Source of the DNA: Oscillospiraceae bacterium
GTDB taxonomy: Bacteria; Bacillota; Clostridia; Oscillospirales; Acutalibacteraceae
Direction of reading: 5' to 3'
Assembly: GCA_902796075.1 (NCBI GenBank)
Contig: CADBNN010000020.1
Span: 4,258-68,257 of the forward strand
Length of the DNA: 64,000 nt
Shown here: positions 14,987 to 24,671 of the stretch, in pieces
How the letters are laid out: each line of letters starts with the position of its first letter
How positions within the stretch are numbered: position 1 is the stretch's first letter
Notes under the pieces: generated by a model
What the model was told of the DNA's origin: nothing
The model's database searches: none
Seen by the model: only the letters and a program-made list of their open reading frames with translations
Position numbers and translations under genes: made by a program

Positions 14987-15020
14987 TCTGAGCGTCTATC
15001 GTCAAAAATCCATAACCCCG

Positions 15021-15057
15021 CGGGGTCGGCTTTTGCAAGCCGGCCCCGTTTTTTTGC
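15021..15057 (+). terminator. Rho-independent terminator after the SBP gene
   Basis: GGGGTCGGCTT-TTGC-AAGCCGGCCCC forms an 11-bp stem with one G-U pair, followed by TTTTTTT. Confidence 0.6.
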
Positions 15058-15128
15058 GCTAAAGGCTTGCAAACCGGGCCGGTTTTCGGTATGATAAAAG
15101 GGTAGATCCACCCAAGGAGGTTTTTGTA

Positions 15129-15746
15129 ATGCATGTTTTGATTTTGAACGGCAGCCCCCGTAAGCAAGGCAATTCGCAGCGCCTGCTGCAGGAGGTCACC
15201 CGCGTGCTGGACGAAGCGCAGGTAACCTGGGAATGCTGGCACCTGGGCACCAAGGCGGTGCAGGGCTGTTTGGCCTGCGGCTATTGCCACACCCACCCGG
15301 GCTGCGCGCTGCAGGACGACGTGAACGAACTGGCCCCCAAGCTGGCTGCCTGCGACGGGCTGGTGATCGTTTCGCCCGTGTATTACGCTTCGGCCAACGG
15401 CAGTTTGGTGGCCCTGCTGGACCGGCTGTTTTACAGCGCCCGGTGCGATTTGCGCATGAAGGTGGGCGCCGCGTTTGCCGTGGCCCGCCGGGGCGGCACC
15501 TCCGCCACTTTTGACCAGCTCAATAAATATTTCACCATCAACCAAATGCCCATCGCCTCCGGCCGGTATTGGAACAACGGCTTCGGCCGGGAACCGGGGC
15601 AGATCGAACAAGACGCGGAAGGCCTGCAAAACGCCCGGGTAGTGGCCCGCAATATGGTGTTTTTAATGCGGTCCATCGCCCTGGGCAAGCAAACCTACGG
15701 CCTGCCGGACCCCGAGCCCGTGCAAATGACCCACTTTATTCGCTGA
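15129..15746 (+). CDS. Flavodoxin-like fold NAD(P)H-dependent FMN reductase / iron-sulfur flavoprotein-like
   Basis: 205 aa. MHVLILNGSPRKQGNS (the FMN-reductase N-terminal motif) and Cys cluster CLACGYC. RBS AAGGAGG. Confidence 0.75.
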   Translation: MHVLILNGSPRKQGNSQRLLQEVTRVLDEAQVTWECWHLGTKAVQGCLACGYCHTHPGCALQDDVNELAPKLAACDGLVIVSPVYYASANGSLVALLDRLFYSARCDLRMKVGAAFAVARRGGTSATFDQLNKYFTINQMPIASGRYWNNGFGREPGQIEQDAEGLQNARVVARNMVFLMRSIALGKQTYGLPDPEPVQMTHFIR

Positions 15747-15778
15747 CCCAAAGCGCAAGCACGTTGTGCGTCAGCGAC

Positions 15779-15807
15779 TTGCCGTTATGTACCGATAGTG
15801 GTACAAT
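15779..15807 (+). promoter_or_regulatory. Promoter TTGCCG-17-TACAAT (with extended -10 TGGTACAAT) for the WYL regulator gene. It contains the perfect palindrome TGTACC-GATAGT-GGTACA (15788-15805) overlapping the spacer and -10: a putative autoregulatory operator.
   Basis: Read directly: -35 at 15779-15784, spacer 15785-15801, -10 at 15802-15807. The palindrome arms are exact reverse complements. Confidence 0.55.
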
Positions 15808-15833
15808 CAACAACACAGAACAGGAGGCGCACC

Positions 15834-16847
15834 ATGAAAAATCCCCAATCGAAAAAGGAAACGTTGAAAGGGCTGGAACCCAAAAAATTGGCGTTGCTGC
15901 GCATTTTGCAAATCATGCAGCAATACAGCGATCACGACCATCCGCTCAAGCAAGAGGATATTGCCCAATATCTTGAAAACGAATACGGTATCGTGATCGA
16001 GCGCAAAGCTATCAGCCGCAACATTTCTTTGCTGAAAGAAGCGGGATTTGAGATCGAATCCTGCCGTGCCGGCAGTTATTTGGACGAGCGCGATTTTACC
16101 GATGCGGAACTGCGCATCCTGATAGACGGCGTTTTATCCAGCAAGTATATCACCGCCAGCTATTCCAAAGCGCTGATCGATAAACTGTGCGCCCTGTCCA
16201 GCCGGTATTTTCGCTCTCACGTGCGGCATATCCATTCGGTAGGGGATTGGGACAAAAGCGAAAACCCGGCTTTGTTTTACAATATCGAGATCGTGGACGA
16301 AGCCATCGAGCAAAAAAAGCAGATCCGGTTTGATTATAACCAGTACGGCGCAGACAAAAAACTGCACAGAACCACCACCCACCGGGTTTCGCCTTACCAG
16401 CTGATCTTGCACAACCAGCGCTATTATTTAATGTGCAAAAGCGAGCGTTGGAAGAACATGGGTTTTTACCGTATGGACCGCATTACCAACATGGCGATCA
16501 CCGAACAAAAACTCACGCCGGTTTCGTCTGTGGAAGGGTACAAAAAAGGCATCAATTATAAGGAACTGGCAACGGCGCTTCCCTATATGTATACCGACAA
16601 GCCGGTGCGGGTGGATTTTATTGCCGCGGCGCAGATCGTAGACCAGATCATCGACTGGTTCGGCAAGGATATCCGCGTGCAGCCGTTGGACGAAAACCAA
16701 CTGAAGGTTACTGTGAAAGCCAGCCCCATGGCCATGGAACACTGGGCGCTGCAGTATGCGGGCTATGTTACCGTAACGGCGCCGGCGGACCTGGTGAACA
16801 ATATCAAAGCCCGCCTGCGGGCCGCGGCGGAACAGTATGACACATAA
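15834..16847 (+). CDS. WYL-domain transcriptional regulator (wHTH-WYL-WCX architecture; BrxR/CapW/PafBC-like)
   Basis: 337 aa. The N-terminal wHTH (LRILQIMQQYSDHDHPLKQEDIAQYL), a central WYL-like region (RFDYNQYGADKKLHRTTTHRVSPYQLILHNQRYYLMCK) and a C-terminal WCX-like region. Start assigned to the ATG at 15834 after a CAGGAGG RBS. Markedly lower GC than flanking DNA. Confidence 0.8.
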   Translation: MKNPQSKKETLKGLEPKKLALLRILQIMQQYSDHDHPLKQEDIAQYLENEYGIVIERKAISRNISLLKEAGFEIESCRAGSYLDERDFTDAELRILIDGVLSSKYITASYSKALIDKLCALSSRYFRSHVRHIHSVGDWDKSENPALFYNIEIVDEAIEQKKQIRFDYNQYGADKKLHRTTTHRVSPYQLILHNQRYYLMCKSERWKNMGFYRMDRITNMAITEQKLTPVSSVEGYKKGINYKELATALPYMYTDKPVRVDFIAAAQIVDQIIDWFGKDIRVQPLDENQLKVTVKASPMAMEHWALQYAGYVTVTAPADLVNNIKARLRAAAEQYDT

Positions 16848-16933
16848 CAATGGCTTTTAACGACGAAAAATTCACCGCCATCCGTTGCAAACAACAAGAA
16901 TCATATCGCTTTTTCGCATTTGCCTAGGAAAAT

Positions 16934-16960
16934 GGACCGTGAAGCTCACGGTCCTTTTTC
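16934..16960 (+). terminator. Rho-independent terminator downstream of the WYL regulator gene
   Basis: GGACCGTGA-AGC-TCACGGTCC is a perfect 9-bp stem, followed by TTTTTCATTT. Confidence 0.65.
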
Positions 16961-17039
16961 ATTTGGCGCGTTATGCCCCGGTTTTGGTACATCGACCGTG
17001 CGATACTCTTTTTATAACGGCCGGAAAGGGGACTGTTGT

Positions 17040-19961
17040 ATGGATCTCATAGGCAACTTGAACGAAAAGCAGCAAGAAGCCGTGCTGGCAACCGAAGGGT
17101 TTGTGCGGGTCATTGCAGGCGCAGGCAGCGGCAAAACCAAGCTTTTGGTCAGTCGGTACGCGTATCTTGTGAAAGAATACGGCATCGATCCGGCCAACAT
17201 TTTGTGCGTTACCTTTACCAACAAAGCGGCCGGTGAAATGAAGCGCCGCATCAGCGCTATCATCGGCGATGAATACGATACGGCGCTGATCTGCACCTAC
17301 CACGGCTTTTGCGCCAGACTGCTGCGGGACGACGGCGAAAAACTGTTTTTATCCAAAAATTTTCAGATCATAGACGCGGTGCAGCAAAAAACCATACTCA
17401 GCGAAATTTACCAAAGGCGGGAATTAAAGCTTGACTACGCCAGCTTTGAAAAAATGCTCAAACAAATAGGAGAATACAAAGCAGCGGCATACCATGCATA
17501 CGTCCCCTGCATGATCAGCCCGGAACAAAAGCAGATCATGGCCGCCGTCGCTTCGCCGGACGACGAGATCGTGGAAGAATATATGCAACGGCAAAAAGCG
17601 GTGAACGCCCTCGATTTTCACGATTTGCTGAGCTTTGCCCTGTATTTGCTGGAAACCGACGAAACCGTGCGCACACGCTGGCAGAACAAACTGAACTATA
17701 TTCAGGTAGACGAATTTCAAGACAGCGCCGCGCGCGAAATGCGGCTGATCGATATTTTGTGCGGCCGTTACCGCAATCTTTTGATCGTGGGCGACCCGGA
17801 TCAGAACATTTACGAATGGCGGGGTTCGGACGTGAAGCTGCTGGTGGATTTTGATAAAACCCACACCCCTACCAAAACGATCATTCTCAATCGCAATTAT
17901 CGCAGCACACCGCAAATACTGGATTGCGCCAACAGCCTGATCGGCCACAACCAACTGCGCTTGAAAAAAGACCTTTTTACCAAGCGCTCGGCGGGCACCA
18001 ACGTTACCCATTTTCATTTTAAAAGCGACGATAAAGAAACCGCCAAAATAGCGGAACTGATCAAAAGCATTGTGCGCAGAAACGAATATAGGTATTCCGA
18101 CATAGCGATTTTGTACCGGTCCGGCTTTTTGTCGCGCCTGGTGGAAAACCGGCTTGCGGAACAAAACATACCCTATGAAATATACGGCGGCGTTAAGTTT
18201 TTTCAGCGCATGGAAGTTTTGGATATGATCGCATACCTGCGGGTGATCGCCTTTGGCGACGATGTTTCGTTCAAGCGCATTATCAACAAACCCCGCAGGC
18301 GTTTCGGCAAAGCCAAACTGCTTGCGCTGGAGCAGCTGCAGGAATCCCTGCAGGCCGCCGGCACACAGACGGTCCCTTTGTTTAACGTTTTGGCGGCTCA
18401 CCTTGAAAACGAGCCGTTTAAAAACAGCGACGCCGCCGGATTCGTGCGGATGATACAGGCTGTGCGAGGCGAAGCGGCCCAATGCAGCATCGGCGAGATC
18501 GTGAACCGCGTGGCGGCCGAATCGGGCTACGAAGCGTACATGCGGGGGTTGGGCGATGAAGAACGCTACAACAATTTAATGGAGTTTAAGCGGGTGGCGG
18601 ATGAGTTTGAGCGAAATTTCGGCGAAGAGATCCCGCTGACGCAGTTTTTGCAGCACCTGGCCCTGCAAAGCGGGGACGACGACGAAACCGAAAGCGACGC
18701 CGTAAAACTCATGACCATACACGCCGCCAAAGGGCTGGAATTCCCCGTGGTGTTCATTATCGGCTTTTCCGAAGGCATTTTTCCGTCTGCCAAAACCATA
18801 GAAGAACGCAAACTGCTGGGCTTGGAGGAAGAACGGCGATTGTGTTACGTTGCCATAACCAGAGCGAAAGAACAGCTGTATTTGATGGATTCCGAAGGGC
18901 TTTCCCAAAACGGCATAAAAAAACTGCCGTCCCGCTTTTTGCGAGAGATCGGGCCGGACCGTTACGACAGGATCGGCGTTATTTCCGACGGGCTCGACCG
19001 GGAAAGCAGAGAATACGCCGCCCGGCTGGACGCAGGATTTGAAACAAAAGCAAGGCGCCTGTATCGGGCAGGCGACGTAGTAACCCACCACGCCTTCGGC
19101 AAAGGGCGGGTGGTTCGTTACGATCCCAAACGCAACAGCCTGACCGTTGCTTTTGAAAAAATAGGGCAGGAGCGTTCGCTTAACGCGGATTATTTCACCC
19201 GGCCGCATACCCTGCCGGCCGTTGCTGCCCCTGCGCCGGAAACGTATCAAACCGAAATCAGCGAAACAGATTTTGAACAAGCAGAAGGCGCCCCGGCGAC
19301 GCCCCGGCTGACGGCCGATTGGATGGAAGATGAAGCGAAGAGTTTACCGTATGATGGGCGTGAGGCGAGGGTGCAAGCCGAAAGCTTTGTGATTCCCGAC
19401 CCGGTGGCGGTGCACCGGGAAGCAGCCGCTCCCGACGAAATCATCACACCTGCGCCTGAACCCGATTATGTTGACGCGCAGGAAGAAGTGAAACGCAAAC
19501 TGGCCAACACGCCCAATTTGTGGAAGCGCGACGACGCACCCCACGACGGCTGGCACTGCGCCGGCGTCAGCGATCTGGGCGCCCCTGTGGGGGTGTGCGA
19601 AATGTGTGGCTGCCAGGTCATCCGGTATGTGCATCACATGGTCCATCCCGCCTTTCACCCGCTTAACGTGGGCTGCGTTTGCGCCGGCAAAATGGAAGGC
19701 AACGTGGAACAGGCGATAAAACGTGAAAACGATTTTAAAAACAAAGAAAATCGCCGCCGGAACTTTTTGAAACGTACGTGGAAAACCTCCCGCAACGGCA
19801 ATCATTACGTCAAAATCAAACAGCACGTGGTCGTGCTGTATCGGCAAAAGGGGGGCTGGCAGTATTCGCTGGACTATGTGTTTTGCAACACGCTTTTTCC
19901 TTCGCGCGACCAGGCGATGAACGCGGCTTTTGAAGCGCTGGATCATGTGATAAAGGCGTAA
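17040..19961 (+). CDS. UvrD/PcrA/Rep-family SF1 DNA helicase with a ~250-aa C-terminal extension containing a Cys/His-rich putative zinc-binding domain
   Basis: Start at ATG 17040 (MDLIGNLNEKQQEAV). Walker A GAGSGKTK; helicase motifs (TFTNKAAGEM, DEFQD, GDPDQNIYEWRG, YRS); a Tudor-like region (GKGRVVRYD...LTVAFE). The C-terminus has HCAG..VCEMCGC..GCVCAG. Confidence 0.85.
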   Translation: MDLIGNLNEKQQEAVLATEGFVRVIAGAGSGKTKLLVSRYAYLVKEYGIDPANILCVTFTNKAAGEMKRRISAIIGDEYDTALICTYHGFCARLLRDDGEKLFLSKNFQIIDAVQQKTILSEIYQRRELKLDYASFEKMLKQIGEYKAAAYHAYVPCMISPEQKQIMAAVASPDDEIVEEYMQRQKAVNALDFHDLLSFALYLLETDETVRTRWQNKLNYIQVDEFQDSAAREMRLIDILCGRYRNLLIVGDPDQNIYEWRGSDVKLLVDFDKTHTPTKTIILNRNYRSTPQILDCANSLIGHNQLRLKKDLFTKRSAGTNVTHFHFKSDDKETAKIAELIKSIVRRNEYRYSDIAILYRSGFLSRLVENRLAEQNIPYEIYGGVKFFQRMEVLDMIAYLRVIAFGDDVSFKRIINKPRRRFGKAKLLALEQLQESLQAAGTQTVPLFNVLAAHLENEPFKNSDAAGFVRMIQAVRGEAAQCSIGEIVNRVAAESGYEAYMRGLGDEERYNNLMEFKRVADEFERNFGEEIPLTQFLQHLALQSGDDDETESDAVKLMTIHAAKGLEFPVVFIIGFSEGIFPSAKTIEERKLLGLEEERRLCYVAITRAKEQLYLMDSEGLSQNGIKKLPSRFLREIGPDRYDRIGVISDGLDRESREYAARLDAGFETKARRLYRAGDVVTHHAFGKGRVVRYDPKRNSLTVAFEKIGQERSLNADYFTRPHTLPAVAAPAPETYQTEISETDFEQAEGAPATPRLTADWMEDEAKSLPYDGREARVQAESFVIPDPVAVHREAAAPDEIITPAPEPDYVDAQEEVKRKLANTPNLWKRDDAPHDGWHCAGVSDLGAPVGVCEMCGCQVIRYVHHMVHPAFHPLNVGCVCAGKMEGNVEQAIKRENDFKNKENRRRNFLKRTWKTSRNGNHYVKIKQHVVVLYRQKGGWQYSLDYVFCNTLFPSRDQAMNAAFEALDHVIKA

Positions 19962-20044
19962 AAATGGCCCTATCCTGCAGTGCTTATCACCGAAAAAGCA
20001 AGGCGCCGCGCCCTATCATACAAAACCGCTGCACACGGCGCAAA

Positions 20045-20078
20045 TGCACCGAAAAGGGTGCATAACAAATGGTAGAAT
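20045..20078 (+). promoter_or_regulatory. Extended -10 promoter (TGgTAGAAT, 20070-20078) for the AAA-protease gene. The perfect palindrome TGCACC-GAAAAG-GGTGCA (20045-20062) occupies the -35 region. It is related to the palindrome in the WYL gene promoter.
   Basis: Read directly from the sequence. An AAAGGAGG RBS at 20087-20094 precedes the ATG at 20103. Confidence 0.5.
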
Positions 20079-20102
20079 AAGCACGAAAAGGAGGTAATAC
20101 TC

Positions 20103-21407
20103 ATGAATGATTTTGAAAAGATCCTCGGCTATGAAGCGATCAAACAAGAACTGATCCAGATCAGCGACGTTCTTGCCAATAGCGAAGCGTATCAAAAGCT
20201 GGGCGTTGAATCTCCGCACGGGCTGTTGCTGTACGGATCGCCCGGCGTGGGTAAAACGCTTATGTCATACGCGGTGATCGCCGCCAGCGGCCGAAAGTCC
20301 TTTATGTGCCGCAAAGATAAACCAAACGGCGATTTTGTAAAGGCGATCAAAGAAACGTTTGCGGCGGCAAAAGCAGCGGCGCCGTCTATCGTGTTTCTTG
20401 ACGACATGGAAAAATTTGCCAACGGCGATGAACGCCATCCGCATGCGGAAGAATACGTTACGGTGCAGTCGTGCATTGACGACTGCAAAGGCCAAGAAGT
20501 GTTTGTGCTCGCCACGGCCAACAAACTGCAGTCACTGCCGAGGTCGCTCCTTCGCGCCGGCCGTTTTGACCGGATGATCAAGGTGCATAACCCCCGCGGG
20601 GAAGACGCCGTGAAAATCATTGACCATTATATCAAAAAGAAGAAATGCATGGCAGATATGGACGCGACCGTTATTGCGCGGATGATGGACGGGCGCTCGT
20701 GTGCGGCGCTGGAAACGGTGATAAACGAAGCGGGGCTGTATGCCGGCTTTGAACGCTCCAACGTGATCACCATGGATCATTTTATGAAAGCGTGTTTGCA
20801 TACCGTTTACGATATTCCCAGCGCGGTGCTGAACGGCCCTGTGCCGAAAACCGACCTGACAAACGGCAACGACCAGCGGGTGCGCATCGTTTACCACGAA
20901 GCCGGCCATGCCACCGTGGCGGAAGTGCTGAATCCCGGAAGCGTCGCGCTCGTTACTGCGTATAACGATGCCGGACATTCCGGCGGATTTACTTCTTACT
21001 GTTGCGACCATGAGCGCAGCACGACGCAAGACATGTTTCGGCAAATATGCGCTTCGCTGGGCGGCATGGCGGCGCTGGATCAGCAATACGGCATGGCAGA
21101 CGCCGGAGTAGGGCAAGACCTGGATCATGCGTTTTCATTGGTCAGCGGCCTTGTGGGAGACGCCTGCATCCGCGGATTCGGTTTTTACGTCAGCGAATGC
21201 GGCGATTCGCAAAGCCGCAAATCCAGGCGAGAGCAGGCGGTCGCCGTTGAAATGGAACGTTGGTATCGAAAAACGAAGGAGATCTTGTCTGCGAACCGTG
21301 ATCTGTTTGAAGCTATTGCGGCTGAACTGTCGCAAAAAGGGGTTCTCACCACGGCGGATATCGACCGGATCAAGCAGCGTTGCCGCATTACGCCGGTCGC
21401 GATCTGA
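20103..21407 (+). CDS. Soluble (no TM) FtsH-like protein: AAA+ ATPase domain fused to an M41-type HEXXH zinc metalloprotease domain
   Basis: 434 aa. Walker A GSPGVGKT; a Walker B-like IVFLDDME (DD rather than DE); sensor-1 TAN; Arg finger RAGRFDR (FtsH has RPGRFDR); HEAGHA zinc motif (FtsH has HEAGHA). No hydrophobic N-terminal segments, and the FtsH aromatic pore loop is absent. Confidence 0.8.
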   Translation: MNDFEKILGYEAIKQELIQISDVLANSEAYQKLGVESPHGLLLYGSPGVGKTLMSYAVIAASGRKSFMCRKDKPNGDFVKAIKETFAAAKAAAPSIVFLDDMEKFANGDERHPHAEEYVTVQSCIDDCKGQEVFVLATANKLQSLPRSLLRAGRFDRMIKVHNPRGEDAVKIIDHYIKKKKCMADMDATVIARMMDGRSCAALETVINEAGLYAGFERSNVITMDHFMKACLHTVYDIPSAVLNGPVPKTDLTNGNDQRVRIVYHEAGHATVAEVLNPGSVALVTAYNDAGHSGGFTSYCCDHERSTTQDMFRQICASLGGMAALDQQYGMADAGVGQDLDHAFSLVSGLVGDACIRGFGFYVSECGDSQSRKSRREQAVAVEMERWYRKTKEILSANRDLFEAIAAELSQKGVLTTADIDRIKQRCRITPVAI

Positions 21408-21417
21408 ATCCGCGCCC

Positions 21418-22122
21418 ATGTATATCAAGCGGCTGGAGATCGATCCTTTTGAAGAATGCGGGCCTATTGGCATATCGTTTGCCGAAGACGTTACGGTGAT
21501 CGACCACAATGTGGGTCAAACGGTCGTCGGCGCAATCAAAATGTTGCTGCTGTATTCTTCGCAGTACGGTGTCGACTTGCCCTTTTCGGCGGGGAAACCG
21601 GCCAAACTGTTTGCCGAAGTGGTGGCCGGTGACGCGACATACCACGTGCGGTCTTGCGGCCTTGCCGGCGGTTTGACGGTGCAGCGGCTTGCAAAGGACG
21701 GCACGATCACACGGGCCGAAGAAGCGTATTGCGCCCTGATGCGGCGGTGCGCGGAGGAAAACAGGATCTCGGTCGTTGCCGGCGTGCATAACGGCTCGGA
21801 TTACGGCCTTGAGCGATACCGCCGGGAGGATCGGTATTACGGTGCGGGCGTTTTTGCCCGTGTAACAGACGGGATGTGCTTAACGCACTCTTTCCGCCGG
21901 TGTGTGAGGCAGCACATGCGCCAAAATGCGGCCGAAGCTCCCAACGCGGATACGCCGGCAAGACCGTGGATCGATACCGTAAGATTTTGGAATGCGTTCG
22001 GCAAAATGCGGGATCTTCATTATGAGGGAAAACCGCTTGTTGTGGACCAAACGCTGCTTTCGTTTGTTTCTGCGCCGGTCTTGTTCCGCATGACCGGCAG
22101 ACAGGTGCTGATCGTAACGTAA
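21418..22122 (+). CDS. Hypothetical protein, co-transcribed with the AAA-protease (10-nt gap). The N-terminus resembles a RecF/SMC-type ABC-ATPase N-terminal strand but has a degenerate P-loop.
   Basis: 234 aa. MYIKRLEIDPFEE...ISFAEDVTVIDHNVGQTVVGAIKMLL aligns in pattern with the MxIxxLxLxNF...IxGxNGxGKS N-termini, but the GKS/T is missing. Weak RBS. Confidence 0.5.
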   Translation: MYIKRLEIDPFEECGPIGISFAEDVTVIDHNVGQTVVGAIKMLLLYSSQYGVDLPFSAGKPAKLFAEVVAGDATYHVRSCGLAGGLTVQRLAKDGTITRAEEAYCALMRRCAEENRISVVAGVHNGSDYGLERYRREDRYYGAGVFARVTDGMCLTHSFRRCVRQHMRQNAAEAPNADTPARPWIDTVRFWNAFGKMRDLHYEGKPLVVDQTLLSFVSAPVLFRMTGRQVLIVT

Positions 22123-22138
22123 TAAGTTTATTTTCAAA

Positions 22139-22178
22139 GCAACCGCCGAAACGATGGCGCCATCGTTTCGGCGGTTGC
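22139..22178. terminator. Bidirectional intrinsic terminator between the convergent hypothetical gene (+) and spoVAC (-)
   Basis: GCAACCGCCGAAACGATGG..CCATCGTTTCGGCGGTTGC is a 19-nt perfect inverted repeat, flanked by T-rich (plus strand) and A-rich runs. Confidence 0.6.
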
Positions 22179-22189
22179 TTGCGCTTTAT

Positions 22190-22633
22190 TTACAGCAGGC
22201 CGGCGGCCCACAAGATTACGCCGTATATCACGCTGGCCAATGTGCCGTATACCAGCACCGGGCCGGCGATCACAAACATTTTGGCGGCCAGGCCGGGCAC
22301 CAGCCCTTCGCTGCGAAATTCCATGGCGGGGGCGGCAACGGCGTTGGCAAAGCCGGTAATGGGCACCAGCGTGCCGGCGCCTGCCTGCCGGGCCAGCCGG
22401 TCGTATACGCCCAGCGCCGTGAGCAGGATAGACAAAAAAATCAAACTCACCGAAACCAGCCCCCGGGCGGTATCGGCGGGCAAGCCCATTCCTTCAAACC
22501 GTTCCCACAAAAACTGTCCTGCGGTGCAAATGGCGCCGCCGGTTAAAAAAGCCTTCAGGCAGTTGAGCGCTACCGGCGAGCGGGGAGAGGCGTCGGCCGT
22601 CATGCGCCGGTATTGCTTGGGTTTTGTTTGCAT
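22190..22633 (-). CDS. spoVAC: SpoVAC-family protein (stage V sporulation protein AC-like membrane channel subunit), solitary
   Basis: 147 aa from the ATG at 22633 (AAAGGAAG RBS). The hydrophobic core FLTGGAICTAGQ...GFANAVAAPAMEFRSEGLVPG matches SpoVAC/SpoVAEb-family motifs. No spoVAD or spoVAEb nearby. Confidence 0.65.
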   Translation of the reverse strand: MQTKPKQYRRMTADASPRSPVALNCLKAFLTGGAICTAGQFLWERFEGMGLPADTARGLVSVSLIFLSILLTALGVYDRLARQAGAGTLVPITGFANAVAAPAMEFRSEGLVPGLAAKMFVIAGPVLVYGTLASVIYGVILWAAGLL

Positions 22634-22797
22634 AGCGTTCTTCCTTTGCGTTTTTTTGTTCATAGTGTGGCCGGCTGTTGCCGATCCATACGCCGCCGGA
22701 GAAAATCTCTTCATTATTTGGCCCGTTTGTCTTGATTTTCCGGACGTTTTCTGCTACTATGCCATTAGAATCTAACTTTTTGCAGGGGGCGTGTACT

Positions 22798-23883
22798 ATG
22801 AAACAGTTAAAAGGCGGCATTATCGGGTGCGGCGGTATTGCGTTCGGCAAACATCTGCCGGCCATTCAGCGAGTGGGCGCCGTGGATATGACGGCGTTTT
22901 GCGACATTGTGGAAGAACGGGCGGCCAAAGCCGCGGCGGAATACGGCGCCGAAGGCGCCAAGGTTTATACCGATTACAAGGAATTGCTGGCGGACCCCAC
23001 GCTGGATGTGGTGTACGTTTGCACCCCCAACCGGTCTCACAGCTTTATCACGGTGGATGCGCTGCACGCCGGCAAGCACGTGATGTGTGAAAAGCCCATG
23101 GCCAAAACCTATGCGGAAGCCGTGGCCATGTGTGAAGCGGCCGAAGAAACCGGCAAGGTGCTCACCATCGGCTACCAAAACCGCCGCCGGGCCGACGCGC
23201 TGTATGCCAAAGCCTGTGCCGATGCCGGCGAACTGGGCGATATCTATTATGCCCGCGCCCTGGCGCTGCGCCGTCGGGCGGTGCCCACCTGGGGCGTATT
23301 TTTGAATGAATATGAGCAGGGAGGCGGCCCGCTGATCGATATCGGCACCCACGCGTTAGACCTGACCTTGTGGTGCATGAACAATTATAAGCCCAAAATG
23401 GTGGTGGGCACCACCTTCCGCAAACTGGCCGATCAGACCGAAACCGGTAACGCCTGGGGCGATTGGGACCCGGAACAGTTTACGGTGGAAGACGCCGCCT
23501 TCGGCTTTGTGGTGATGGAAAACGGCGCCACCGTTTCGGTGGAATCCAGCTGGGCGCTGAATCTGATCGACGCGAAAGAGGCGTCCACCGTGCTGTGCGG
23601 TACCAAAGCCGGCCTAGATATGCTGGACGGCTTGCGCATCAACGGGGTGCAGCACGGTCGGCAATATGTGCAAAAGCCCAACCTGCAGGCGGGCGGCGCG
23701 GCGTTTTACGACGGCATTGCCGGCGGCGCGCCGGAAGATATTGAAGCCAAAATGTTTACCGACGCGGTGCTGCACGGCACCGAGCCTTCCACCTTGCCCC
23801 GGCAGGCGGCCTGCGTTACCCGCATTTTAGAAGCCATTTATGAATCGGCCCAAACCGGCAAGCCGGTGTTTTTGGAGGACTGA
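22798..23883 (+). CDS. Gfo/Idh/MocA family NAD(P)-dependent oxidoreductase
   Basis: The Rossmann N-terminus GIIGCGGIAFGKHLPA and a CEKP motif. Start at ATG 22798 after a G-rich RBS. Confidence 0.85.
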   Translation: MKQLKGGIIGCGGIAFGKHLPAIQRVGAVDMTAFCDIVEERAAKAAAEYGAEGAKVYTDYKELLADPTLDVVYVCTPNRSHSFITVDALHAGKHVMCEKPMAKTYAEAVAMCEAAEETGKVLTIGYQNRRRADALYAKACADAGELGDIYYARALALRRRAVPTWGVFLNEYEQGGGPLIDIGTHALDLTLWCMNNYKPKMVVGTTFRKLADQTETGNAWGDWDPEQFTVEDAAFGFVVMENGATVSVESSWALNLIDAKEASTVLCGTKAGLDMLDGLRINGVQHGRQYVQKPNLQAGGAAFYDGIAGGAPEDIEAKMFTDAVLHGTEPSTLPRQAACVTRILEAIYESAQTGKPVFLED

Positions 23884-23885
23884 AT

Positions 23886-24671
23886 ATGAAACTGGGTATC
23901 ATCACCACCCCCGACGCAGCCGGCATTCGCTGGGCCCGGGATATGGGCGTGGACGCAGCGGAATTTTGCCTGAACGTGGGCGTGGACCTGGACGCGGTGA
24001 TCGCCCGCAAGGATGAAATACTAAACGCCTTGCAGGAAACGGGGTTGGTCATGGGCTCCATCGGCCGGTGGGGGCCCGACCGGATCTGTGCCGACGGCCT
24101 GTGCCGGGACGAACTGGCCAACGAGCGCAAACTGCTGGCGTTGTGCCGGGATCTGCATTGCCCGGTGTACGTGACCGGCTGTAATATGGTGGAAGGGCTT
24201 TCCTTTTACCAAAACTGCACGCTGGCTATCGAGTATCTTTCCGAACTGATGCAAACGGCCGAAGAATACGGCGTAAAGGTTTGCACCTATAACTGCCACT
24301 GGAACAGTTTTTTAGACTGCGATCCGGCCTGGACGGTGGTGCACGGCCATCTGCCCGCGTTGGGCATCAAATACGATCCCTCTCATGCCTTTGCCGGCGG
24401 GCGGGATTATCTGGCCGAAACGCAAGCCTGGGGCCACCGGTTTTACCATGTGCATCTCAAAGGCTCGCTTTACGCGGCCGGGCAGCATATCGACGATCCG
24501 CCGGCCGGGATGGACTGCACCAACTGGGGCGCGTTTATGGCTATGCTGTACCAAAAAGGATATAACGGTGTGCTGTCTGTCGAACCCCACTCCGCCACCT
24601 GGCAGGGCCGGTTGGGCGAAGCGGGCATCCGTTACACGGTCGATTATTTCAAACGGTTTTTGCTGGCGTAA
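23886..24671 (+). CDS. Sugar phosphate isomerase/epimerase (xylose-isomerase-like TIM barrel)
   Basis: 261 aa. Typical AP-endonuclease-2/TIM-barrel family composition (HVHLKG...VEPH motifs). Tightly linked (2-nt gap) to the preceding oxidoreductase. Confidence 0.75.
   Translation: MKLGIITTPDAAGIRWARDMGVDAAEFCLNVGVDLDAVIARKDEILNALQETGLVMGSIGRWGPDRICADGLCRDELANERKLLALCRDLHCPVYVTGCNMVEGLSFYQNCTLAIEYLSELMQTAEEYGVKVCTYNCHWNSFLDCDPAWTVVHGHLPALGIKYDPSHAFAGGRDYLAETQAWGHRFYHVHLKGSLYAAGQHIDDPPAGMDCTNWGAFMAMLYQKGYNGVLSVEPHSATWQGRLGEAGIRYTVDYFKRFLLA

Follow-up and report, generated by a model that had tools for sequence, protein, structure and literature searches.

An operator conserved at the promoters of a WYL-headed island in Oscillospiraceae suggests autorepression and DriD-like activation of defence-type genes

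Within 64 kb of the genome of an Oscillospiraceae bacterium (GenBank assembly GCA_902796075.1, contig CADBNN010000020.1, positions 4,258 to 68,257; the whole stretch is referred to here as the window, and its first letter is position 1), three 18-bp palindromes, O1, O2 and O3, precede three consecutive co-directional genes, the first of which encodes a regulator with winged helix-turn-helix (wHTH), WYL and WCX domains. Judged from the sequence and its conservation, the palindromes are genuine, specific operators that have not arisen by chance, and together with the genes behind them they form a real local WYL regulon. Given that a palindrome of the same 6-6-6 geometry is conserved on the regulator's own promoter and on the promoters of its neighbours, the WYL protein is taken to be the binder of all three. 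The best model, and one that is considered rather probable, combines autorepression with activation of the target genes in the manner of DriD from Caulobacter crescentus. A homodimer of the adjacent wHTH-WYL-WCX protein would bind the three palindromes (consensus a-TGYACC-aAATtt-GGTRCA-t) and control a regulon made up of the WYL regulator, a UvrD-like helicase, a soluble AAA+/M41 protease and an ORF4-like gene (ORF, open reading frame). On O1 the dimer would shut the canonical sigma-A promoter of the WYL gene (P1), giving negative autoregulation, while on O2 and O3 it would replace the absent -35 element and recruit or stabilise RNA polymerase, activating the helicase and the protease/ORF4 promoters. 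The trigger would be a nucleic-acid ligand of the WYL domain, for example the single-stranded DNA (ssDNA) that arises when DNA is damaged or a phage replicates, as the precedents of DriD, PafBC, CapW and DdaA would suggest.

Perfect matches to TGYACC-N6-GGTRCA occur only twice in the window, at the coordinates that a first-pass annotation of this DNA had given. O1 (TGTACCGATAGTGGTACA, 15788-15805; TGTACC-N6-GGTACA, 22.1 bits) lies in the P1 spacer and overlaps the P1 -10, and O3 (TGCACCGAAAAGGGTGCA, 20045-20062; TGCACC-N6-GGTGCA, 22.2 bits) fills the -35 position of the protease promoter. Dinucleotide-preserving shuffles of the window contained a mean of 0.01 perfect matches, and none of 100 shuffles reached two. 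When one mismatch is tolerated exactly one further site appears, O2 (TGCCCCGGTTTTGGTACA, 16974-16991; 17.9 bits), on the helicase promoter, 20 nt past the terminator of the WYL gene and 48 nt 5' of the helicase ATG. The half-site GGTACA that had been noted upstream of the helicase at about 16987 is present as a sequence, but it is in fact part of this full site. Scores were obtained with a weight matrix built from other-species sites only, and a scan of the 64 kb with this matrix returned no further operator above chance, the runner-up scoring 9.5 bits against a mean top score of 10.2 bits in shuffles. Two-mismatch matches at 24516, 24547 and elsewhere were rejected as additional sites, given that their frequency equals the background. 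The operators are recorded without a strand; the promoter hexamers, genes and terminators of the four-gene block are on the plus strand.

Conservation of the motif was assessed in 80 genome loci, 1.25 Mb in total, that carry WYL orthologues at 57-77% identity, with expectations taken from first-order Markov simulations preserving the dinucleotide composition of each locus. These loci contain 43 perfect sites against 0.1 expected and 77 one-mismatch sites against 4.45 expected. The density of sites is maximal immediately either side of the WYL gene; downstream it remains raised over some 10 kb, more than 3 kb upstream it is close to zero, and the cluster as a whole lies between about -2 kb and +10 kb of the gene. 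A downstream ORF could be assigned to 107 sites, and in 99 of these cases it is co-oriented with the WYL gene. Directly upstream of the WYL orthologue itself the motif is found in 33 of the 80 loci with up to one mismatch and in about 45 with up to two, and recognisable variants occupy this place in several further loci. Far more distant WYL homologues (27-41% identity) in which the recognition helix ERKAxxR is conserved still have the site upstream, and a paralogue with a different helix (NRRTIYS) lacks it. At the degenerate position the arms change independently of each other (C..G 32, C..A 30, T..A 21, T..G 17), which agrees with half-site recognition by a protein rather than with a nucleic-acid hairpin. 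The earlier idea of one shared, dimer-type operator tied to the WYL gene is thus borne out by its conservation at, and clustering around, the orthologues of 80 genomes; the repression and derepression of the protease operon that formed part of the same idea are doubtful.

The doubt arises from the promoters of the target genes, which share a strict layout. In an anchored set of 76 sites upstream of non-WYL genes, O2 and O3 included, a hexamer matching TATAAT in at least five of six positions lies exactly 10 bp past the operator at 70% of sites, against 0-18% at other offsets, all but one of which are at or below 11%. With at least four of six positions required and the two sites of the window left out, the proportion is 64 of 74 (86%). 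Specificity is lost when the motif is relaxed to three or more mismatches, the fraction of sites with a -10 at +10 falling to the control level at four. The consensus of the target promoters is a-TGYACC-aAATtt-GGTRCA-T-N9-TATAAT, in which, with the -10 hexamer set at -12 to -7, the operator spans approximately -40 to -23. The place of the -35 is taken by operator bases (CAAATT); TTG occurs there in none of 66 promoters, and the best -35 match averages 1.76 compared with 2.57 at control positions. A TG extension of the -10 is present in 35% of target promoters. This is the layout of DriD-type promoters, in which the site stands where a -35 is missing and its distance to the -10 is constant, and both target operators of the window conform to it. 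The -10-like hexamer of the helicase promoter, GATACT (17002-17007), begins exactly 10 bp past O2, and the extended -10 of the protease promoter, TGgTAGAAT (20070-20078, TG at 20070-20071), which is present beside the second palindrome as previously described, places its hexamer TAGAAT (20073-20078) exactly 10 bp past O3. Base-pair-exact phasing on a missing -35, in front of unrelated genes in dozens of species and across 10 bp of diverged sequence, is what would be expected of an activator that contacts RNA polymerase. The direction of regulation at the helicase and protease promoters is inferred from this cis-architecture to be activation, and the layout suggests that these genes are switched on rather than merely de-repressed.

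The promoter of the WYL gene is of another kind. A consensus scan recovered the TTGCCG-17-TACAAT promoter that the first-pass annotation had placed over the first palindrome (15779-15807), with its -35 hexamer TTGCCG at 15779-15784, its -10 hexamer TACAAT at 15802-15807 and a TG extension at 15799-15800, and GGTACAAT is conserved in orthologues of the same promoter type. Among these type A promoters, defined as the window and 13 orthologues, TTGNNN lies 3-4 bp upstream of the operator in 12 of 14, the window included, giving TTGNNN-17/18-TACAAT around the operator, whose right arm, GGTACA, runs into the TG-extended TACAAT. A good -10 at +10 is a further feature of most type A orthologues, whereas the window has a degenerate hexamer there (CAGAAC). 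O1 and the type A promoters therefore fit an operator that occludes a complete promoter, in contrast to the target promoters, which have no -35. Since O1 lies between a good -35 and the -10 of a canonical promoter, binding there should shut P1 off, and the autoregulation proposed earlier gains support from this position. A second class of WYL promoter was observed at L017:9905-9950, with equivalents in loci L020-L024 and L026, in which the operator is enclosed within a 34-bp palindrome, ACACCCnnTGCACC-N6-GGTGCAnnGGGTGT, followed by TTGTAA-17-TAAAAT; the larger palindrome suggests a second binding layer or a tetramer.

The WYL gene (15834-16847) encodes 337 residues. Its N-terminal wHTH is recognised by HTH_12 at 21.5 bits (cut-off 21.4), with HTH_11 at 21.4 bits falling under its cut-off of 25. 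The central WYL domain (PF13280, residues 151-220) scores 44.3 bits against a cut-off of 21.8, and the C-terminal WCX dimerisation domain (PF25583, residues 258-332) scores 31.2 bits against 23.9. The AlphaFold2 model has a mean predicted local distance difference test (pLDDT) score of 74, and is good for the wHTH, WYL and WCX domains and poor for the linker bundle. The wHTH consists of helices 16-31, 40-51 and 57-69 and a beta wing at 74-83 (pLDDT 76-88); between it and the WYL domain, helices are predicted at 90-99, 112-122, 136-141 and 145-159, with pLDDT below 50 at 88-107 and 119-142. A sequence search of the PDB gave a single marginal match, PafC, and comparison of folds was therefore needed. 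Foldseek gave full-length alignments of the model to DriD, PafBC and BrxR; the nearest matches were PafBC and DriD (E about 1e-12, 15-19% identity), BrxR and CapW being farther (1e-7 to 1e-6, 10-14% identity). Identity to DriD, BrxR, CapW, DdaA and PafBC is below 20% in every case. The family comprises 3631 proteins at E <1e-10, mainly from metagenome-assembled genomes of Oscillospiraceae and Acutalibacteraceae, and the clade is widespread in gut and rumen Oscillospirales, with 239 GTDB species hits.

Comparison with characterised WYL regulators indicates, at the level of sequence, a promoter architecture shared with DriD and a genomic setting shared with BrxR and CapW. A 2026 cryo-electron microscopy study of DriD described promoters without a -35 in which the site overlaps the -35 position and keeps a constant distance to the -10 (PMC13004042). 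DriD, a homodimeric activator with the arrangement wHTH-3HB-WYL-WCX (3HB, three-helix bundle), resembles the present protein in being of the single-gene homodimer type with a palindromic site on a missing -35, in its length (327 compared with 337 residues), in its place among the best Foldseek matches and in the distance of the site centre from the -10, which is about 19 bp by our own estimate from the printed oligonucleotides (PMC13004042) and 19.5 bp here. It differs in sequence (15-17% identity) and in its operator, ATACGAC-N7-GTCGTAT instead of TGYACC-N6-GGTRCA. Its targets, moreover, are dispersed DNA-damage genes (didA, bapE, recJ, dnaG), whereas the present sites are grouped within a mobile island of defence type. 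Activation and the sensing of ssDNA belong to DriD and would apply here by analogy; given that sensing of nucleic-acid (ssDNA) ligands has been described for DriD, PafBC, CapW and DdaA (PMC13004042, PMC11662680, PMC12392091), the present protein probably responds to an ssDNA-like ligand also. The wHTH-WYL-WCX repressors BrxR and CapW, found beside BREX, CBASS and other defence systems, likewise head a defence island and have an autoregulatory site on their own promoter as well as palindromic boxes, of which one island can contain more than one (pEFER has two R-boxes, PMC9122601). However, they are weaker structural matches (E 1e-7 to 1e-6, 10-14% identity) of about 285 residues, and the BrxR boxes lie downstream of the -10 as roadblocks, while the target sites here are phased at the -35, and a single island can hold as many as 8-9 of them. 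Among WYL activators of defence genes the nearest precedent is DdaA of Moraxellaceae, which activates DNA-damage and defence genes, CRISPR-Cas and restriction-modification among them, from a palindromic CGWCA-N5-TGWCG (PMC12392091); the present site has its centre at about -31.5, and its regulon is apparently local. PafBC, an actinobacterial activator that acts by sigma adaptation at a -26 element, is the best Foldseek match and the only PDB sequence match, its regulated promoters also lack a -35, and the half-site GGTRCA at approximately -28 to -23 lies close to the PafBC -26 element. Nevertheless, PafBC is a PafB-PafC heterodimer of paralogues or a fusion, has a non-palindromic motif and does not bind DNA without RNA polymerase, whereas the window has one WYL gene and its site is symmetric. 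A literature search for the TGYACC-N6-GGTRCA motif or for this WYL clade found no description of either. The operator thus appears to be new and the kind of WYL factor already known, and a DriD-type activator dedicated to a modular defence island is credible on these comparisons.

A less probable alternative is that the WYL protein is purely a repressor, as the first-pass annotation proposed and as BrxR and CapW would suggest: the dimer would block RNA polymerase at all three promoters until the ligand released it and the island was de-repressed. A number of observations point this way and so weigh against activation. O1 itself, inside a canonical promoter, is in a repressor-type position; the WYL regulators characterised to date beside defence systems, BrxR and CapW, are repressors, BrxR with two boxes in its island (PMC9122601, PMC11662680); and a protein at -40 to -23 would occlude sigma region 4. 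The -10 hexamers of the targets are near consensus, and the TG extension carried by 35% of them can make a -35 dispensable, so that some targets might fire without an activator and merely be blocked. In addition, the +10 hexamers of the window (GATACT at the helicase, CAGAAC at the WYL gene) are weaker than those of its relatives, and the helical-bundle part of the model (residues 88-142) is of low confidence. However, repression at the targets is the less likely reading for three reasons: a roadblock needs no exact phasing, yet 70-86% of about 75 promoters keep the 10 bp although the intervening sequence has diverged; no target retains a -35, although promoters of these organisms can have one, as those of type A (P1) show; and the fold is nearer to those of activators. 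What stands of the derepression model is its predicted control of the protease promoter, to which the helicase promoter can be added, and repression of these promoters is the doubtful part, given a site fixed 10 bp before the -10 and a missing -35.

Autorepression with activation of the targets also presupposes that the WYL protein is the one that binds. The link between protein and motif is an association, and the 80 loci were chosen for containing a WYL gene, which raises the possibility that a regulator encoded elsewhere binds the palindromes and that the WYL gene is a frequent neighbour. An unbiased metagenome scan for operator-N10-TATAAT, made with no reference to the protein, found 120 loci, of which 47 have a WYL homologue or an island-family gene in the available flanks and just 18 have a WYL gene there. 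Many of these flanks, however, are only 1-5 kb long, and in the 80 loci site density peaks right beside the WYL gene. The WYL protein is furthermore the only DNA-binding protein among the four island genes of the window, and the site stands on the WYL gene's own promoter in the 33 to about 45 of 80 loci counted above as well as in distant homologues that keep the recognition helix. A separate regulator is for these reasons improbable. The same operator-N10-TATAAT search of 2.9 million viral contigs yielded 8 exact matches, and a phage origin of the motif-promoter unit was rejected on this count.

Readings in which no regulator is involved are very improbable. Chance matches are excluded by the shuffles, the weight-matrix scores and the enrichment across 80 loci. 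The perfect sites could form 6-bp hairpins of -6.7 and -9.6 kcal/mol, as terminators or attenuators might, but no T-run follows the sites, which lie upstream of the -10 and hence outside the local transcript, the arms do not covary (C..A pairs being about as frequent as C..G) and O2 cannot fold, and the hairpin or terminator reading was rejected; an Rfam scan of 15000-23000 likewise matched no RNA element. Island modules are shuffled between genomes with a site at the 5' end of each, as might be expected of recombination sites for cassette shuffling, but no recombinase is conserved in the islands.

The genes under O1-O3 form a four-gene block of 6.4 kb that, from its sequence, looks like a compact acquired island. 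The WYL gene is closed by an intrinsic terminator (16934-16954; a 9-bp stem with 6 GC pairs, then TTTTTCATTT). The helicase (17040-19961, 973 residues) is a UvrD/PcrA-like superfamily 1 protein with the Pfam domains UvrD-helicase and UvrD_C, matched also by the GajB-type models of PADLOC. Its identity as the housekeeping PcrA was rejected, given a score of 588 bits against the PcrA equivalog cut-off of 911 and the presence of such a helicase next to the WYL gene in just 6 of 80 loci. After a weak match to the PcrA tudor domain it carries a C-terminal extension of about 260 residues (18957-19961) that is rich in Cys and His (…WHCAGVSDLGAPVGVCEMCGCQVIRYVHHMVHP…GCVCAGK…), is kept in four orthologues (L001, L037, L038, L043) and was not assigned to any Pfam family. 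The third gene (20103-21407, 434 residues) encodes a soluble FtsH-like AAA+/M41 protease without the FtsH membrane anchor, in which Walker A and HEAGH are intact; its Walker B reads VFLDD, with Asp where the catalytic Glu is expected. The ORF4-like gene (21418-22122, 234 residues) has no Pfam family and probably shares a transcript with the protease. At its N-terminus the sequence MYIKRLEI is similar to the first strand of ABC/SMC ATPases, but the P-loop is absent. Homologues of ORF4 lie directly 3' of an AAA+ gene, either a 672-residue ATPase or an M41 protease, in at least 12 islands, and the pair looks like a two-gene module of unassigned role. A strong intrinsic terminator with a 20-bp stem (22137-22180) closes the island. 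The guanine-cytosine content of the island (15800-22200) is 51-56%, with about 58% in its last kilobase, compared with 58-64% in most of the flanking sequence, which fits horizontal acquisition into a higher-GC host; such an acquisition may explain why the operator spacers are GC-richer and the -10 hexamers weaker than in relatives. The flanking genes (a GH38 mannosidase, an FMN reductase, SpoVAC and sugar oxidoreductases) were rejected as members of the island on account of their ordinary metabolic or sporulation functions and higher GC content.

Across the orthologous loci the WYL gene stands at the head of a defence-type island, and on this comparison of gene content the island is modular, the window holding a minimal version. 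The families that recur 3' of the sites are the 672-residue AAA+ ATPase, usually with the ORF4 homologue next; a SNF2 helicase (DrmD-like) followed by a MoxR-type AAA+ protein and a VWA/DUF2201 metallopeptidase; two GmrSD-type nucleases; BspA-type leucine-rich repeat proteins; a retron reverse transcriptase (RT_Ec107-like, 2e-117) with a 186-residue partner; a dGTPase-like HD protein (9e-44); and SUFU-like, metallophosphoesterase and DUF2779/Cas4-like proteins. Neighbours of the WYL gene also include IetA-like AAA+ proteins and GajB-type UvrD. The UvrD-like helicase adjoins the WYL gene in 6 loci and the AAA+/M41 protease does so in 10 genome loci; orthologous helicases in L037, L038 and L043 have an operator at the same place as O2, and protease homologues in L029 and L035 have one at the same place as O3. 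Some islands (L017, L021) carry 8-9 sites, one per module.

Three further features of these islands were observed. Between the operator-promoter and the retron reverse transcriptase there is a conserved non-coding stretch of about 200 nt (L017:8592-8806, also in L015, L020 and L021), which is probably the msr/msd RNA and gave no Rfam match. The DUF2779/Cas4-like protein, of 498 residues, occurs in 28 copies (L004, L029, L051, L052, L067-L069, L072, L074 and others), and may mark island boundaries. Some copies lie directly upstream of the WYL gene, and it is the WYL gene that lacks its own operator in these cases; the others stand in inverted orientation at the opposite end of the island. Locus L055 (NZ_JBBMFF010000194.1) belongs to a cultured isolate, Faecousia intestinalis CLA-AA-H192, and holds a WYL gene with its operator and two GmrSD-type targets.

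Taken at its broadest, the arrangement raises the possibility, which can be put forward only tentatively, that an undescribed clade of WYL proteins acts as the ligand-gated master activator of a modular, mobile defence island, in which each module carries a portable operator-10 bp-TATAAT promoter without a -35 and the activator represses its own canonical promoter. If this is true, newly acquired modules would plug into one infection- or damage-inducible switch, the modules in view being the retron, the dGTPase-like HD protein, GmrSD, SNF2/MoxR/VWA, the AAA+ ATPase with its ORF4-like partner, the UvrD-like helicase and the AAA+/M41 protease. Little is understood of the means by which defence islands stay silent and can still be induced, above all in strictly anaerobic gut Firmicutes. 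In this locus the operator is defined, the promoter grammar is simple (operator, 10 bp, -10, no -35) and some 150 natural examples are at hand, and the prediction is that the WYL factor activates the whole island and does not only repress. The motif could also be used as a regulatory tag for finding new defence modules among the genes 3' of it, such as the 672-residue AAA+ protein (AAA672) with its ORF4-like partner or the soluble AAA+/M41 protease. The system would not introduce a new principle of regulation, but it would provide a clean and tractable one in which to study how such islands are controlled.

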